A DNA stretch of 59,909 bases from Acidobacteriota bacterium (lineage in GTDB: Bacteria > Acidobacteriota > Aminicenantia > UBA2199): contig JAUPLE010000120.1 of NCBI GenBank assembly GCA_030837085.1, positions 1 through 59,909 on the forward strand, read 5' to 3'. The position numbers and the translations under genes were made by a program. Shown here in pieces: positions 14,236-43,300 of this stretch; the stretch's first letter is position 1; each line of letters opens with the position of its first letter. Below the pieces are notes generated by a model. That model saw only the letters and a program-made list of their open reading frames with translations. It was not told the DNA's origin and searched no databases.

Positions 14236-17200
14236 ATGAATAATTTTGTCGGGATAATGGTTGAAGATAGCCCACAACTCCTGGTAGGGCTGCTGGGAAT
14301 TTTAAAATCCGGGAAAGCACTTGTCCCCATTAGCGCTACATACCCTTCAGAAAGAATTCATTTCATCATCAAGGATTGTAATATTCGCCTCTTGTTAACT
14401 GATAAAGCGAATTATGGCAAAAGTTATGAAATAGCAGCGGCAAGTCCGGTGTTGACCCACCTGCTTTGCCTGGATGACGGAACTAGCGACACTTTTGACA
14501 AAAAAACGGGGGAGGCCCACAGCTCTTTCCAAAAAGAAGAAACCTGCTATGTGATCTACACCTCGGGGTCCACGGGCAAACCCAAGGGCGTCCCTATCAC
14601 TTATCGAAATTTAAATCCCCTATTTTATTACTCCAGGGAATACCTGCACCTGGGCGGGCATACGCGTGTAATGAAGAATTTATCTTATACATTTGATTTT
14701 GGGATTTTCGAGATTCTCACGACACTTTTGTTTGGCGGTCAACTTTATATCTTAAATAAGTCATCCATTGGCGATTTTTCCTTTTATGCCTATTTTATCA
14801 ACAGGCAGCAAATTAATACTCTTCATACGACGCCGGTGTTTTTAAATAACCTGGCCTGTTCAGGCCAAAAAATGCCTTTTATAAAGCGTATCCATCTGGG
14901 AGGGGAGCAGTTAACCGGCAAGGTGGTACAGGATACACTGGCTGTGATATCCCCCGGGTGTATTCTCTACAATGGTTATGGGCCCACCGAAGCCTCGATC
15001 AACTGCACTTTTTTCTCTTTAACCTGGGAAGAAATGAAAGCGAACGTAAGGGAAAACATTCCCATTGGGAAGCCGTGCGACCGGCATGAAATTTATATCC
15101 TGGATAATTTTCTCAATCCGCAGCCGGTGGGAGCGGCCGGTGAATTGTGCATAGCAGGGCCGGGGTTGTCGAAGGGGTATTTAAACCGCCCGGAATTAAC
15201 TGCTGAAAAATTTGGACCACAGATTACGCTGATTACGCAGATTAATGTGATAAAAAAAACAAAAATAATCAAAAGTTTTACGGGGGTCCGTACCGGCGGG
15301 GCGGTTTTTCAAAAGAGCCCCCTGGAAATTTATCGCACCGGTGACCTGGCGCGGTGGTCAACCGACGGCAATATCGATTTCCTGGGCCGCATCGACCACC
15401 AAGTCAAAATCAGGGGGTTCCGCATCGAATTGGGAGAAATCGAAAGTTGCCTGTCCTTGCATCCAATGGTTAAAGAAACCGTGATCATGGCTCGGGAGTA
15501 TGAGAACGGCGATAATTACCTCTGTGCTTATATTGTGACTCAACCGCCGGAACATCTGACCGTCTCCCAATTGAGGGAATTTCTTTCAAAGCACTTACCC
15601 GATTACATGATTCCTGCATATTTTATTCAAGTGGACAGAATCCCCATGACAACCAATGGGAAAATAGACAGGAAAGCGTTACCGAAACCGGATGAAACTT
15701 TCATCGATACCGGCGTCGAATATGTTGCGCCGGTTACAGGAACGGAGAAAAAGCTGACACTCTTCTGGCAGCAGTTATTAATGATTGAGAAAATAGGAAT
15801 CGTTGATGATTTTTTCCATTTGGGAGGAGATTCCATCCTGGTGAACCGGTGCATTGCGCGCATCCGGGAAGAAATGCAAGTAGAAATTCCGCTGCGGAAA
15901 TTTTTTGAGCAACCTTTTATAAAAGCCTTAGCGGAAGAAATTGAGAAACAGGAACGCCGGGTATTTTCCATCCCGAAGGCAGCCCGGGATGGAGACATTC
16001 CGCTTTCTTTTCCCCAGGAACGGTTATGGTTTTTGCAAAACTTGAATTCAGAGAGTGTCGCCTATTTTGTACCCCGTGTCATCCGGGTCATAGGGAAACT
16101 GGAAGTAAAAATACTTGAACGGACCTTTACTGAAATAATTCGCCGTCATGAAATATTGCGAACAGTATTTGTGACAAAAGACAGTATACCCGTGCAGCAA
16201 GTGCAGGCTCCCTACTATTTTAATATCCCGGTTATCGATATAAGCCGTGACGAGGTGGAACATTGGGTAGAAGAAGAAGGACATAAGTCCTTCGATTTTG
16301 ACAAAGGCCCCCTGCTGCGAGTTTCCCTGCTAAAACTCGAAGAAAACGAACAACTGATAGTGCTGACTGAGCATCATTTGGTCCATGACGGCTGGACCCA
16401 GGGAGTGCTGTTGAAAGAGTTTATCCACATCTTCACCGCTTATTCCGAAGGAAGAGATCATGATTTGCCGGAATTGCCGATTCAATATGCGGATTTTTGT
16501 GTATGGCAGCGTGAATTTTTGCAAGGAGAGCGACTCAATCGCCATCTTGATTATTGGAAAGAAAAACTGTCCGATTTGATCCCGTTATTGGAACTCCCCG
16601 GGGATCGTCCCCGGCCAACAGTGATGAGTGGAAACGGCGCGTTGAAAGAATTTCGCCTGCCTTGCACCCTTACCAGGCAATTGGAAGAATTCAGCCGGGA
16701 GAATGGTATAACTTTATTTATGACTATGCTGGCAGTGTTCAATACTCTTTTATACCGTTATTCCCGGGAAGAGGATTTGTGTGTAGGCATGGGTATTGCC
16801 AACCGGGGTTATAAAGAAATGGAAGGCATGTTGGGGATGGTGATAAACACGCTTCCGCTTCGCACGCATACGGTGGGTGATCTTACTTTCACACAGTATT
16901 TAAACCGTGTAAAAGAGACCTGCCTGGAAGCATATCAACACCAGGATACGCCGTTCGGCAAAATAGTGGAAGCCCTGGCCCCGAAGCGAAGTTTAAGTTA
17001 TAACCCTCTTTTCCAGGTGATGTTTAATTTTATGGATACGCCTACGGAAGATTTATGGCTGCCGGGCCTGGAATTGCACCTGGAACCGACTCATAACCGT
17101 TCAGCTAAATTCGACATCAACATTGTTGTAGTACCACCGCCGGAACAGGAAATAGATCCGGCGTCGGAAATAAATGGCGGCGAAATCCTGGTGGAATGGG

Positions 17201-40395: not shown

Positions 40396-43300
40396 AAAGG
40401 ACTCCCGATAGGGGTTGTGGATGAATTATGTAACCGGTTCGCAGTCGAAGATATTTACACATTGAGCCCCATGCAGGAAGGGATGCTGTTTCATGCATTG
40501 ATTGATGAGCATTCCTCATCATATTTTGAACAAACCTCGTACCGCCTCCGAATGGAACTGGATATCGATGTGTTTAAAAGAAGCTTGAACAAATTGTTAT
40601 CTCGTCATGATATCCTGCGTACTGTTTTTGTTTTTAAGGGAGTAGATCGACTGATCCAGGTGGTATTGAAACAGAGAGAAATAGACTTTTATTATGAAAA
40701 TATCGGTCACATCGAAGGAGAGGATGCAAAAAAAATATTTATAAAAGAGTTCAAAACAAGAGATCGGAGAAAAGGATTCAATCTCAATCACGATGCCTTA
40801 ATGAGAGTATCGGTATTGAAAGTGGGAAATGGTGAATATGAAGTAATATGGAGTTTCCATCACATATTGATGGATGGCTGGTGTATCGGGATATTGAATA
40901 AAGAATTTTTTGAGATTTACAATGGGATGATAGAGGGAAGAAAAGTAGAATTGCCGGCGATTAGGCCGTACCGTGATTATATCCGCTGGCTGGAGCAAAG
41001 AGACAGGGATACGGCGCGGATGTACTGGAAGGAGTACCTGGCATATTACGAAGAGAACTCCGGTGTCCCCCGGTTATTAAGCAGTAAAAATAAAGGAACC
41101 GATTATCGGGATGAGCATCTGGAATTGTTATTGGAGATCGAGGAAACGGACCGATTGAAAAGGATAGGAGAAAGGAGGGGCGTTACACTGAATGTAATAA
41201 TGCAGGTGATATGGGGAATTTTATTAGGAAGGTATAATGGCAAGGAGGACGTAGTATTCGGATCGGTGGTATCGGGGCGCCCCCCGGAAATAGAAGGAAT
41301 AGAATCGATGGTCGGATTATTTATCAATACAGTGCCAGTGCGAGTAAGATACGGGGGGGATATGGAATTCGGGGATTTGTTGGAGAAATTCCAGCAATCA
41401 TCTTTAAATTGTGAACCGCACCATTATTATCCCTTAGCGGATATCCAGGCGGAGAGTTCATTGAAACAAAATTTAATCGATCACATCTATATATTCGAGA
41501 ATTACCCTATCTCTGAACAATTTGAGGCATTTGAAGTGCTGGGAACAGGGGGAAGGAAGAATGGCGCGGCGCCCGGCTTTCGAGTGTCCAACGTTGACGT
41601 ATGGGAGCAGACCAATTATGATTTTAACGTGGTATTGGGTGCCGCTGATCGGTTGATGATAAGGTTTGACTATAACGGGAACATTTTTGAAAGGGAGTTT
41701 ATTACCAAAATAGGAACCTATATTATTCAAATCGTACGCCAGGTAATCGAAAATGAGGATAAGAAAATAAATGAGATAGAGATAATGATGGACGAAGAGA
41801 AGCAGCAGATTTTGTACGGGTTTAACGATACTCGGGTAGATTATCCGATAGATAAAACCATCCACCAATTATTTGAAGAACAGGCGTCAAGGACACCCGA
41901 TTATATATCCCTCGTAGGGGCAGACCTGCGTGTCTCCCCTGTCAGCCTGTCCTACCGTGAATTGAATGAGCAATCCGGTGGAGTGGCCGGTTTGTTAATC
42001 GAAAAAGGCGTCCTGGCAGACACTATCGTAGGAATTATGACGGAACGTTCAGTGGAAATGATTATCGGGATTATGGGTATATTGAAATCCGGCGGGGCCT
42101 ATTTACCCATCGACCCGGATTACCCCCAGGAACGAATCGATTATATTTTGAAAGACAGCGGAGCTAAATTTTTAATTAATGAAATGTTTTTTAGGGGGTC
42201 AAGGGGGGCGATTTTACAAAAAAGCTCCCCTTGTGATGTTAATCTCGCTTACATCATCTACACCTCCGGTTCCACGGGAAAACCGAAAGGTGTCGTGATC
42301 GAGCATCGATCTGTAATAAATTTTATAAAAGGTATTACAGATATTATTCCCTTTACAGTGAATGATAGGATATTGTCATTAACCACGATTTCTTTCGATA
42401 TATTCGGCCTGGAAACGTTGGTTCCCCTGGTTAGCGGTTCCGTGGTGGCGATGGGCGGGAGGGAAGAACAGTTAAATCCGGAAGCAGCCGGTATTGCTAT
42501 CGAACGAGAAAATATCTCCATTTTCCAGGTCACTCCCTCAAGACTGCATACGATAATCTCTTTACCAGTAGCGGCAGTGAGTTTGAAAATATTAAAATTT
42601 TTATTAGTAGGAGGGGAGGCTTTTCCTGGGCCTATGTTGGAAAAGGTTAGAACATTAATTCACGGGAAAATATTCAATATGTACGGACCTACAGAAACCA
42701 CTATCTGGTCTACCGTTAGGGATGTGAGTGGGGGAGTAGCGGAGACATTAAATATCGGTAAACCTATTGCCAATACAGTTATTTATATCCTTGGCGGTTC
42801 GCTTCACATGATTCCCATCGGTGCACCTGGTGAGCTTTATATTGGGGGAGACGGGCTGAGCAGGGGCTATTTGAATAGACCCGAATTGACAGCAGAGAGG
42901 TTTGACCGGGATGGGGGAAAAAATGAAAAGTTTTTGGGGGTCCGAACCGGCGGACTTTTTTTCAAAAAGGCCCCTGGTCGCCGCAGGCTTTACAAAACCG
43001 GCGATCTTGCCCGATGGCTGCCGGACGGAAATATTGAGTTTTTGGGACGCATCGATCACCAGGTGAAACTCCGCGGATTCAGGATAGAATTGGGAGAAAT
43101 AGAGAATCGACTCGCCCACTACCCGGGGATAAGAGAAGCCGTGGTCACAGCTAAAACAGATAAAAATGGAGATAAATATTTAAGCGCATATATTGTTTCA
43201 TGCCAGGAGTTCCTGGTTTCGGAATTAAAGGGATATTTGTTAAAACATTTGCCCGATTATATGATCCCCTCGTATTTTTCATTGATAGAAAAAATTCCTT

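Follow-up and report, generated by a model that had tools for sequence, protein, structure and literature searches.

The locus and its copies of PE-1

The DNA analysed here is a stretch of 59,909 nucleotides from an Acidobacteriota bacterium (lineage Acidobacteriota; Aminicenantia; UBA2199; assembly GCA_030837085.1, contig JAUPLE010000120.1), hereafter called the window. It has a G+C content of 43% and carries five collinear open reading frames (ORFs) for non-ribosomal peptide synthetases (NRPSs), all on the + strand, from 14236 to 55596. Within and beside these genes lies a palindromic repeat of 55–70 bp, PE-1, of which a preliminary description made from the sequence had reported seven in-frame copies in loops of adenylation (A) domains and one copy between genes. 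The same eight sites were recovered by two routes. A search with the core TTTTTCAAAARAGCCCCC, allowing up to three mismatches, gave nine matches over eight sites against 0.46 expected by chance, with none of 100 shuffled sequences scoring as high, and a chance origin of the repeat was rejected on these figures. A profile hidden Markov model made solely from 60 copies outside the window returned the same eight sites and none further, all of them on the + strand.

The intergenic copy (12904–12962, + strand; nhmmer score 47 bits) is a short form without the 3′ tail and sits between the divergent genes at 10349–12775 (− strand) and 13029–13712 (+ strand). The remaining seven, which we name by their first position, are all on the + strand and in frame within the NRPS ORFs 14236–25845, 25850–35731 and 35728–43704. 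When the nine A domains of the cluster are aligned, five of these copies fall between ...ELTAEKF, which follows motif A6, and YRTGDL (motif A7), that is, in the A6–A7 loop. They belong to A domain 1 (15267–15325; peptide KSFTGVRTGGAVFQKSPL, core frame ttt-caa-aag), A domain 2 (18598–18656; peptide KSFCGGDRGAVFSKKAPL, with a frame switch inside the element), A domain 3 (21805–21863; peptide NNFTWGCTGGTVFQKSPL, degenerate), A domain 6 (34994–35047; peptide KSFLADEGGRFFKKAPL, core frame ttc-aaa-aaa) and A domain 8 (42922–42988; peptide EKFLGVRTGGLFFKKAPGRRR, a long form). The other two lie between ...DYILKDS (A2) and LAYIIYTSG (A3), in the A2–A3 loops of A domain 7 (37631–37694; peptide KKFLGGPRGDFSKKPPGCRRP, a long form with the 3′ tail and the highest profile score in the window, 61.7 bits) and A domain 8 (42178–42232; peptide EMFFRGSRGAILQKSSP), the latter domain holding one copy in each loop. 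Neither loop of the A domains at 25003 and 49244 in the same cluster contains PE-1, and the A6–A7 loops of those at 31796 and 38296 are likewise free of it.

Anatomy of the element and covariation of its stem

Alignment of the outside copies gives the full-length consensus (TAAnn)AAAAGTTTTTYGGGGGGTCCAGGGGGGCGRTTTTTCAAAARAGCCCCCCTGGYCGCCGRAGGC(AA), in which AAAAGTTTTTY is followed by a G-run, by the main hairpin (CCAGGGGGGC / GRTTTTTCAAAARA / GCCCCCCTGG) and, in long forms, by a 3′ mini-hairpin. This mini-hairpin, GCC-GRA-GGC, is contained in the 3′ tail YCGCCGRAGGC, found in the window in copies 37631 and 42922; it was broken in none of 60 copies and took the compensatory form GTC...GAC in three of them. 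Another GC mini-hairpin, with a GAA-type loop (e.g. GCCGCGAAGCGGC), stands 5′ of about 22% of copies, compared with 9% at control positions. Mini-hairpins of the type C-GNA-G are unusually stable as DNA, and we regard this stability as a lead toward a single-stranded-DNA mechanism rather than as a result. The ends of the element, AAAAGTTTT... and ...GCCGRAGGC, do not form an inverted repeat, the palindrome being internal, and its homopolymer runs are the sites at which copies vary in length.

The preliminary description had drawn the stem as 7 bp of G:C pairs with an A:T extension. The G:C stem is indeed present, but it measures 5–7 bp and its extension is CCAGG/CCTGG. Its outer pairs change in compensation (TGCAGG/CCTGC, TCAAGG/CCTTG, TTGAGG/CCTCA, CCAAAGG/CCTTTGG and TGTGG/CCACA), and the G-run of one arm tracks the C-run of the other in length. 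A test for covariation, which had been proposed at the outset, was positive: in an ungapped alignment of 86 distinct copies the stem was paired in 91% of cells, against 58–66% when the partner was slid by one column, and double-sided changes filled 100 cells compared with 32 ± 10 in shuffles (0 of 500 shuffles as high). Mismatches of the G:T kind (22) outnumber A:C mismatches (7) in the stem. Among the NRPS copies of the window the majority still fold (copy 18598, with an intact stem, at −26.1 kcal/mol), whereas two of the seven are eroded (copy 21805 in its hairpin, fold z-score −0.46; copy 42922 in its stem, z-score −0.28).

Reading frames and encoded peptides

The conserved core had been described as being read in all three frames, and the host phases given for VFQKSP, FFKKAP and DFSKKPP were confirmed. 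Copies 15267 and 21805 use ttt-caa-aag (VFQKSP), a frame class to which copy 42178 also belongs (tta-caa-aaa, peptide ILQKSS); copies 34994 and 42922 use ttc-aaa-aaa/aag (FFKKAP), and copy 37631 uses ttt-tca-aaa (DFSKKPP). Copy 18598 enters in the GAVF frame and leaves in the KKAP frame owing to one indel of +2 in the loop and another of +1 upstream, which bears out the earlier remark that internal indels switch the frame. The frames thus differ among copies, which do not share one codon phase and one conserved peptide, the pattern named in the preliminary description as speaking against selection on the nucleotide sequence.

The sense-frame peptides of the element are KSFLGGPGGRFFKKAPL, KVFWGVQGGDFSKKPP and KFFGGSRGAIFQKSPPGRRR, with GGPGGRFFKKAPL and GAIFQKSPPGR as further predicted peptides. 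Across the in-ORF copies of other genomes the three frames were represented 15 (FFKKAP), 10 (FSKKPP) and 13 (FQKSP) times, in a raw list that still includes palindromic double hits, and readings in two antisense frames (GAFLKNRPPGPP and GGFFEKSPP) are present as well. The consensus lacks a stop codon in five of its six frames, the remaining one, antisense, being shut solely by the TGA in TTTTTGAAAAA; such openness has a probability of 0.04 in shuffles of the element and of 0.008 in random sequence with the base composition of the window. Five frames are open because the element consists of G/C runs and A/T runs, and the same DNA can therefore be read in three sense and two antisense frames, all of which encode loop-like peptides rich in Gly, Pro, Lys, Ser and Phe. 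The in-ORF copies are nevertheless predominantly in sense orientation (30 vs 5; p ~0.001 against the 3:2 expected from the open frames).

Element-encoded loops in the adenylation domains

In ordinary NRPSs the A6–A7 loop comprises 11–13 amino acids (VPNPFxPGERM), and in NRPSs of Aminicenantes and Deferrimicrobium it is replaced by varied repeat-derived peptides. NRPSs from other metagenome-assembled genomes (MAGs) carry PE-1 in the same two loops as those of the window (loci L025, L049, L061, L062, L063, L067, L076, L082 and L106). An AlphaFold2 model of A domain 8 (41839–43365) has a mean predicted local distance difference test (pLDDT) value of 88.7 and superposes on solved A domains (PheA 1AMU, LgrA and EntF; TM-score up to 0.80). 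The sole internal stretches of low confidence in this model, approximately residues 121–135 and 361–380, fall within the parts encoded by the element, namely residues 114–132 (copy 42178; pLDDT 54 for residues 121–130 and 79 for 131–140) and 362–384 (copy 42922; pLDDT 45–49), which are coil save for one short turn. The model thus places the element-encoded inserts in predicted flexible loops outside the A-domain core, in agreement with the disordered surface loops that had been anticipated for them. For NRPS engineering, the A2–A3 and A6–A7 loops are two naturally marked sites that accept 18–25 extra residues of near-arbitrary sequence.

A single nucleotide in a 55-nt unit separates the intergenic copy 12904 from copy 15267 of the NRPS, compared with an identity of only 35–79% among the host A domains, so that copying has been recent. 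Copies 18598 and 34994 have homologous flanks (DLW..QD..NKSF ...) and have since diverged through compensating indels by which the frame shifts inside the element. Judged by these flanks, the two probably derive from one insertion by way of module duplication, so that the seven NRPS copies would not all be independent. We conclude that both independent insertion and descent by module duplication contributed to the present set.

That all seven represent a single ancestral linker peptide handed down with duplicating modules is, by comparison, extremely improbable. NRPS modules do duplicate, the flanks of 18598 and 34994 are homologous and copies 15267 and 21805 are in the same frame, but the copies occupy two different loops and three frames, their host A-domain cores are just 35–55% identical, an intergenic copy is 1 nt away from an NRPS copy, and the same DNA recurs in alanine racemase, HypF, citrate lyase, beta-galactosidase and other proteins as well as at 68 intergenic sites (see below). 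The differing frames, the copy between genes and the unrelated hosts refute the ancestral linker as a general explanation, leaving it only for the pair 18598/34994.

The A domains themselves are mosaic. Their nine A3 motifs lie at 14557, 17899, 21148, 24424, 31217, 34340, 37729, 42259 and 48677. The A1–A2 flanks are mostly 58–79% identical (41–52% for the starter domain) and the A3–A6 cores 35–55%, except for 17899/48677 at 75%. The nearest neighbour switches by segment, the domain at 48677 being closest to 21148 in its flank and to 17899 in its core, a pattern which suggests recombination near the A2–A3 loop. One might then see in the PE-1 copies a portable homology that promotes recombination between A domains and favours swaps of the A3–A6 core. 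The A2–A3 and A6–A7 loops do bracket this core, which sets substrate specificity, A domain 8 has copies on both sides of it (42178 and 42922), and the A domains are mosaic with switching neighbours. We nonetheless hold this account to be very unlikely: mosaicism is general in NRPSs and does not need repeats, a recombinant junction inside a PE-1 copy was not observed, and the window copies differ in subfamily and are partly degenerate. The element is, moreover, genome-wide, so that any effect on NRPSs would be incidental rather than the purpose for which it exists.

In a wider version of the same idea, which we also consider unlikely, PE-1 and the other small loop repeats would be more than passengers and would together drive recombinational swaps of NRPS specificity cassettes in these uncultivated lineages, while owing their spread between phyla to a hairpin-recognising enzyme. 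Same-orientation homology would then be available on both sides of the A3–A6 specificity core, and the invariant core GGGGC-G-R-TTTTTCAAAA-R-A-GCCCC would be the recognition site of an enzyme that acts on single-stranded-DNA hairpins.

Occurrence in other genomes and host genes

A scan of one genome per bacterial species detected the 24-nt core GGGCGNTTTTTCAAAANAGCCCCC in at least 107 loci. Among the loci listed, most belong to MAGs of Candidatus Aminicenantes, to which WVZO01, DAOWCY01 and JAPKZK01 contribute dozens of contigs apiece; the remaining ones come from Deferrimicrobium, Nitrospinota, high-GC MAGs without a classification and a small number of Clostridia/Eubacteriales MAGs. PE-1 was not found in viral contigs, phage records or plasmid records. 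When 138 non-redundant copies with scores of 30 bits or more were sorted by position, 68 lay between genes, 45 inside ORFs (of which 41 in ORFs of 250 amino acids or longer) and 25 across ORF ends. The orientation of the intergenic copies is unbiased with respect to the neighbouring genes (++ 13, −− 15, +− 15, −+ 8).

Besides NRPSs, the host enzymes include an alanine racemase (locus L016), HypF (L019, antisense orientation), HpcH/citrate lyase beta (L044), a GH2 beta-galactosidase (L060, antisense orientation), a dihydropyrimidine-dehydrogenase-like protein (L077) and a serine dehydratase (L102), and in these hosts Pfam domains flank the insert or are split by it. In the citrate lyase, a clean insert of 25 amino acids, AQKNDKTKQKFFGGPGGDFSKKPPG, is missing from all 120 best homologues (403–414 amino acids). 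In the DNA of this locus the element stands where homologues have AAAGAAGAAGAG..., the exact junction being hidden by divergence (81% amino acid identity).

An identical hairpin core also occurs in MAGs of gut Firmicutes from the Clostridia/Eubacteriales (L001, L024, L043, L051, L094 and L098), in which the outer stem and the 3′ flank (tcttcactttgtaactttc) differ. Cross-phylum spread, convergence or binning contamination could each account for these cases.

Probable nature of the element

We consider it likely that PE-1 is a non-autonomous, duplicative DNA hairpin element which is kept in genes only where it is in frame, free of stop codons and situated in a permissive loop. Copies would land, or be copied, anywhere in the genome and would spread by duplication within and between genomes, possibly when an enzyme provided in trans transposes a single-stranded DNA hairpin or uses it as a template for copying. 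Those in genes would persist given a length that keeps the frame, the lack of a stop codon and a permissive surface loop. Length changes in the G-runs, C-runs and loop would shift the frame inside the element and be compensated nearby, as is seen in 18598 compared with 34994. In the NRPSs, the A6–A7 and A2–A3 loops would tolerate copies, some of which would then have been multiplied by module duplication.

The preliminary description had attributed the repeat to selection on nucleotide or RNA structure, or to selfish propagation, with the protein imposing only the frame. This reading is supported because the peptide varies by frame while the DNA is conserved, because the element is found between genes and in unrelated enzymes, because stem pairing is kept by compensatory changes and because the A-domain inserts are low-confidence coil. 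Of its two branches we favour the selfish one. A specific RNA function, such as pausing or termination, is neither shown nor needed; there is no intergenic orientation bias, no T-run and no Rfam match.

Such a function would make the hairpin a selected cis-acting RNA or DNA structure of the NRPS genes, such as a pause site or an mRNA-stabilising stem, with the peptide as a by-product, which on balance seems improbable to us. The compensatory changes in the stem, the folding of most NRPS copies, the sense bias inside ORFs, the excess of G:T over A:C mismatches and the + strand position of all eight window copies would fit it, and the identity of the 24-nt core across phyla helps to keep it alive. 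Yet the element is mostly intergenic, without orientation bias, and its genic copies are spread over many unrelated genes at unrelated positions. Nor do the NRPS genes themselves behave as a cis-acting role would lead one to expect: two of their seven stems (21805 and 42922) are eroded, the A domains at 25003 and 49244 lack copies in both loops, and those at 31796 and 38296 lack them in the A6–A7 loop. What comes after the hairpin, YCGCCGRAGGC (+ strand) or ACCCCCCAAAAAAC (− strand), contains no T-run in either case, and an intrinsic terminator was rejected for want of this feature and of any intergenic orientation bias. Rfam gave no match at gathering score over the whole window, with only chance-level hits (E ≥ 1.6) in the region of the intergenic copy.

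Several points also weigh against a mobile hairpin element. Its mobility is inferred only from distribution, because neither a transposase nor a terminal inverted repeat nor any clear target-site duplication came to light. Searches by tblastn with IS608 TnpA, IS200 TnpA and Escherichia coli RAYT, using hand-entered query sequences, gave no match in about 0.8 Mb of fetched loci, and what lies between the two inverted PE-1 copies of locus L056 is a protein of the membrane cytochrome type rather than a transposase. The flanks of aligned copies contain no consistent direct repeat, and a BLAST search with joined flanks for empty sites among the fetched loci retrieved only paralogous A domains and mosaic repeats. 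For the NRPS of the window, no close orthologue was present in the collections searched, in which the best protein homologues are 49–56% identical, and a metagenome scan gave only a 30%-identical relative.

Three features of the copies themselves belong on the same side. The sense bias of in-ORF copies (30:5) is not predicted by a pure model in which any open frame will do; with the intergenic copies unbiased, it therefore points to an extra filter at the level of peptide or mRNA, not to an insertion bias. A 24-nt core that stays identical in several phyla is not what one usually sees in neutral selfish DNA, and could be the sign of a conserved recognition site or function. The G:T excess, finally, hints at one folding strand, which would fit an RNA role equally well.

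Comparison with known repeats

On this analysis PE-1 is best read as a novel family within a type of selfish DNA that is already known, with the behaviour of the Rickettsia palindromic elements (RPEs; Ogata et al. 2000, as summarised in PMC10969869 and PMC3184786). RPEs are about 105–150 bp long, are confined to Rickettsia and each encode one conserved peptide (PMC10969869). Both kinds of element are palindromic, non-coding and without a transposase of their own, and both occur between genes and in frame inside many unrelated genes, housekeeping genes in the case of RPEs, to which they add a tolerated peptide. PE-1 shows the behaviour that characterises such a class, being an intergenic and genic palindromic repeat read in frame within conserved proteins, but is set apart from RPEs, which were compared by description only and not by alignment, by its length (55–70 bp), its taxa (several uncultivated phyla) and its use of three sense and two antisense frames.

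Repetitive extragenic palindromic (REP) sequences and the related BIMEs and REPINs resemble PE-1 in being short, GC-rich, imperfect palindromes of high copy number (PMC3116915, PMC3733652), and REPs and BIMEs share with it mosaics with other small modules, nested insertions and assembly breaks. REPs, however, are essentially extragenic, have a GTAG or CGTC head, usually form inverted doublets and lie beside RAYT genes, whereas PE-1 occurs as single units with about one-third of copies inside ORFs. Neither GTAG nor CGTC adjoins the stem in its consensus, and no Y1 transposase was found near the sampled copies (about 0.8 Mb, with the hand-entered queries).

[quoted passage not shown] MITEs have terminal inverted repeats and target-site duplications, while the ends of PE-1 are not inverted repeats. 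The ERIC/RU fusions are found mostly at protein ends, and those reported for RU were not seen within conserved domains (PMC2759123); unlike RU, PE-1 lies inside conserved domains, e.g. HpcH, the GH2 TIM barrel and the AMP-binding domain.

Literature searches on Aminicenantes repeats and on repeats in A-domain loops returned no description of PE-1. The small dispersed repeats of cyanobacteria are tiny hairpin-forming mobile repeats without a known transposase, and are reportedly nested and accompanied by tandem heptamer repeats. They resemble PE-1 in combining a hairpin with short tandem repeats, which also occur in this window, and differ from it in sequence and phyla.

What distinguishes PE-1 is its small size, its five usable frames, its spread across phyla and the recurrent use of two loops that bracket the specificity core. 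In-frame selfish DNA in genes, first described in Rickettsia, would be present on a large scale in uncultivated phyla too, in an element of half the size. For the study of mobile DNA, a concrete search problem is set by the hairpin core that is invariant across phyla, the mini-hairpins of GNA type and the fact that no transposase is known.

Consequences for annotation and assembly

PE-1 probably gives rise to spurious hypothetical proteins, inserts odd stretches rich in Gly, Pro and Lys into real enzymes and breaks assemblies. When concatenated peptides of the element were searched against the protein universe, a use for which the word index is ill-suited given such short queries, only 11 small hypothetical proteins were returned. 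These public entries (P0241–P0251; 47–97 amino acids) are made largely of translated element and are probably spurious gene calls over intergenic copies. Two short Logan contigs (L108 and L109) of public short-read assemblies, found by an exact-protein look-up of the neighbouring DNA-alkylation-repair gene, stop inside the intergenic PE-1 (window position ~12911 onward), from which it follows that the repeat breaks assemblies.

Neighbouring modules and mosaics

Directly 5′ of copy 12904 lies a distinct palindromic module that is not PE-1 (12848–12895, + strand), consisting of CCAGAAACCTTTTCGAGAAAAGGTTTCTGG followed by ACTTCCTAAAGCTTTTA; together with the intergenic copy it forms a mosaic (12848–12962). 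Relatives of this module are themselves read in frame, as ‘PPAAKNLFEKRFLDLQKL’ in L077 and L002 and, in antisense, as ‘RTFLKKGSWTSKNFC’ in L077. Other small elements are nested within the PE-1 loop at L070 (1802–1963, − strand) and L077 (4376–4510, + strand), and the composite in L077 remains in frame.

The A2–A3 and A6–A7 loops are general repeat hot spots in this cluster. Tandem repeats with periods of 7–9 nt, in lengths that are not multiples of 3, are translated within the same loops, at 15220–15244, 17719–17749, 17840–17870, 21059–21091, 24244–24267, 24365–24393, 25099–25131, 31101–31189, 31900–31925, 34235–34258 and 48538–48648; ATTCATC repeated 4.7 times, for instance, is translated as IHHSSFIIHHS. 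Three A6–A7 loops contain a motif of the type ‘DRDLWGVQDSQD’ 5′ of PE-1 (18565–18600, 34961–34996 and 42913–42925), and similar peptides, KHDLWDYGDNHEE and DHDLWDLQDYHD, are found in the NRPS homologues P0049 and P0113. This motif is probably a further repeat module.

In the WVZO01 contigs L008, L015, L046 and L070 a common sequence, ...TTGACTTAAGAAGAACACACTCTAATAAAAAG, which resembles a −35/−10 promoter, stands upstream of PE-1, and the same four copies share a downstream module, AAAAAAAGTTCTGATAGAGTTTTATAGGAG. Copies flanked in this way are part of a larger mosaic repeat, possibly a transcribed unit.

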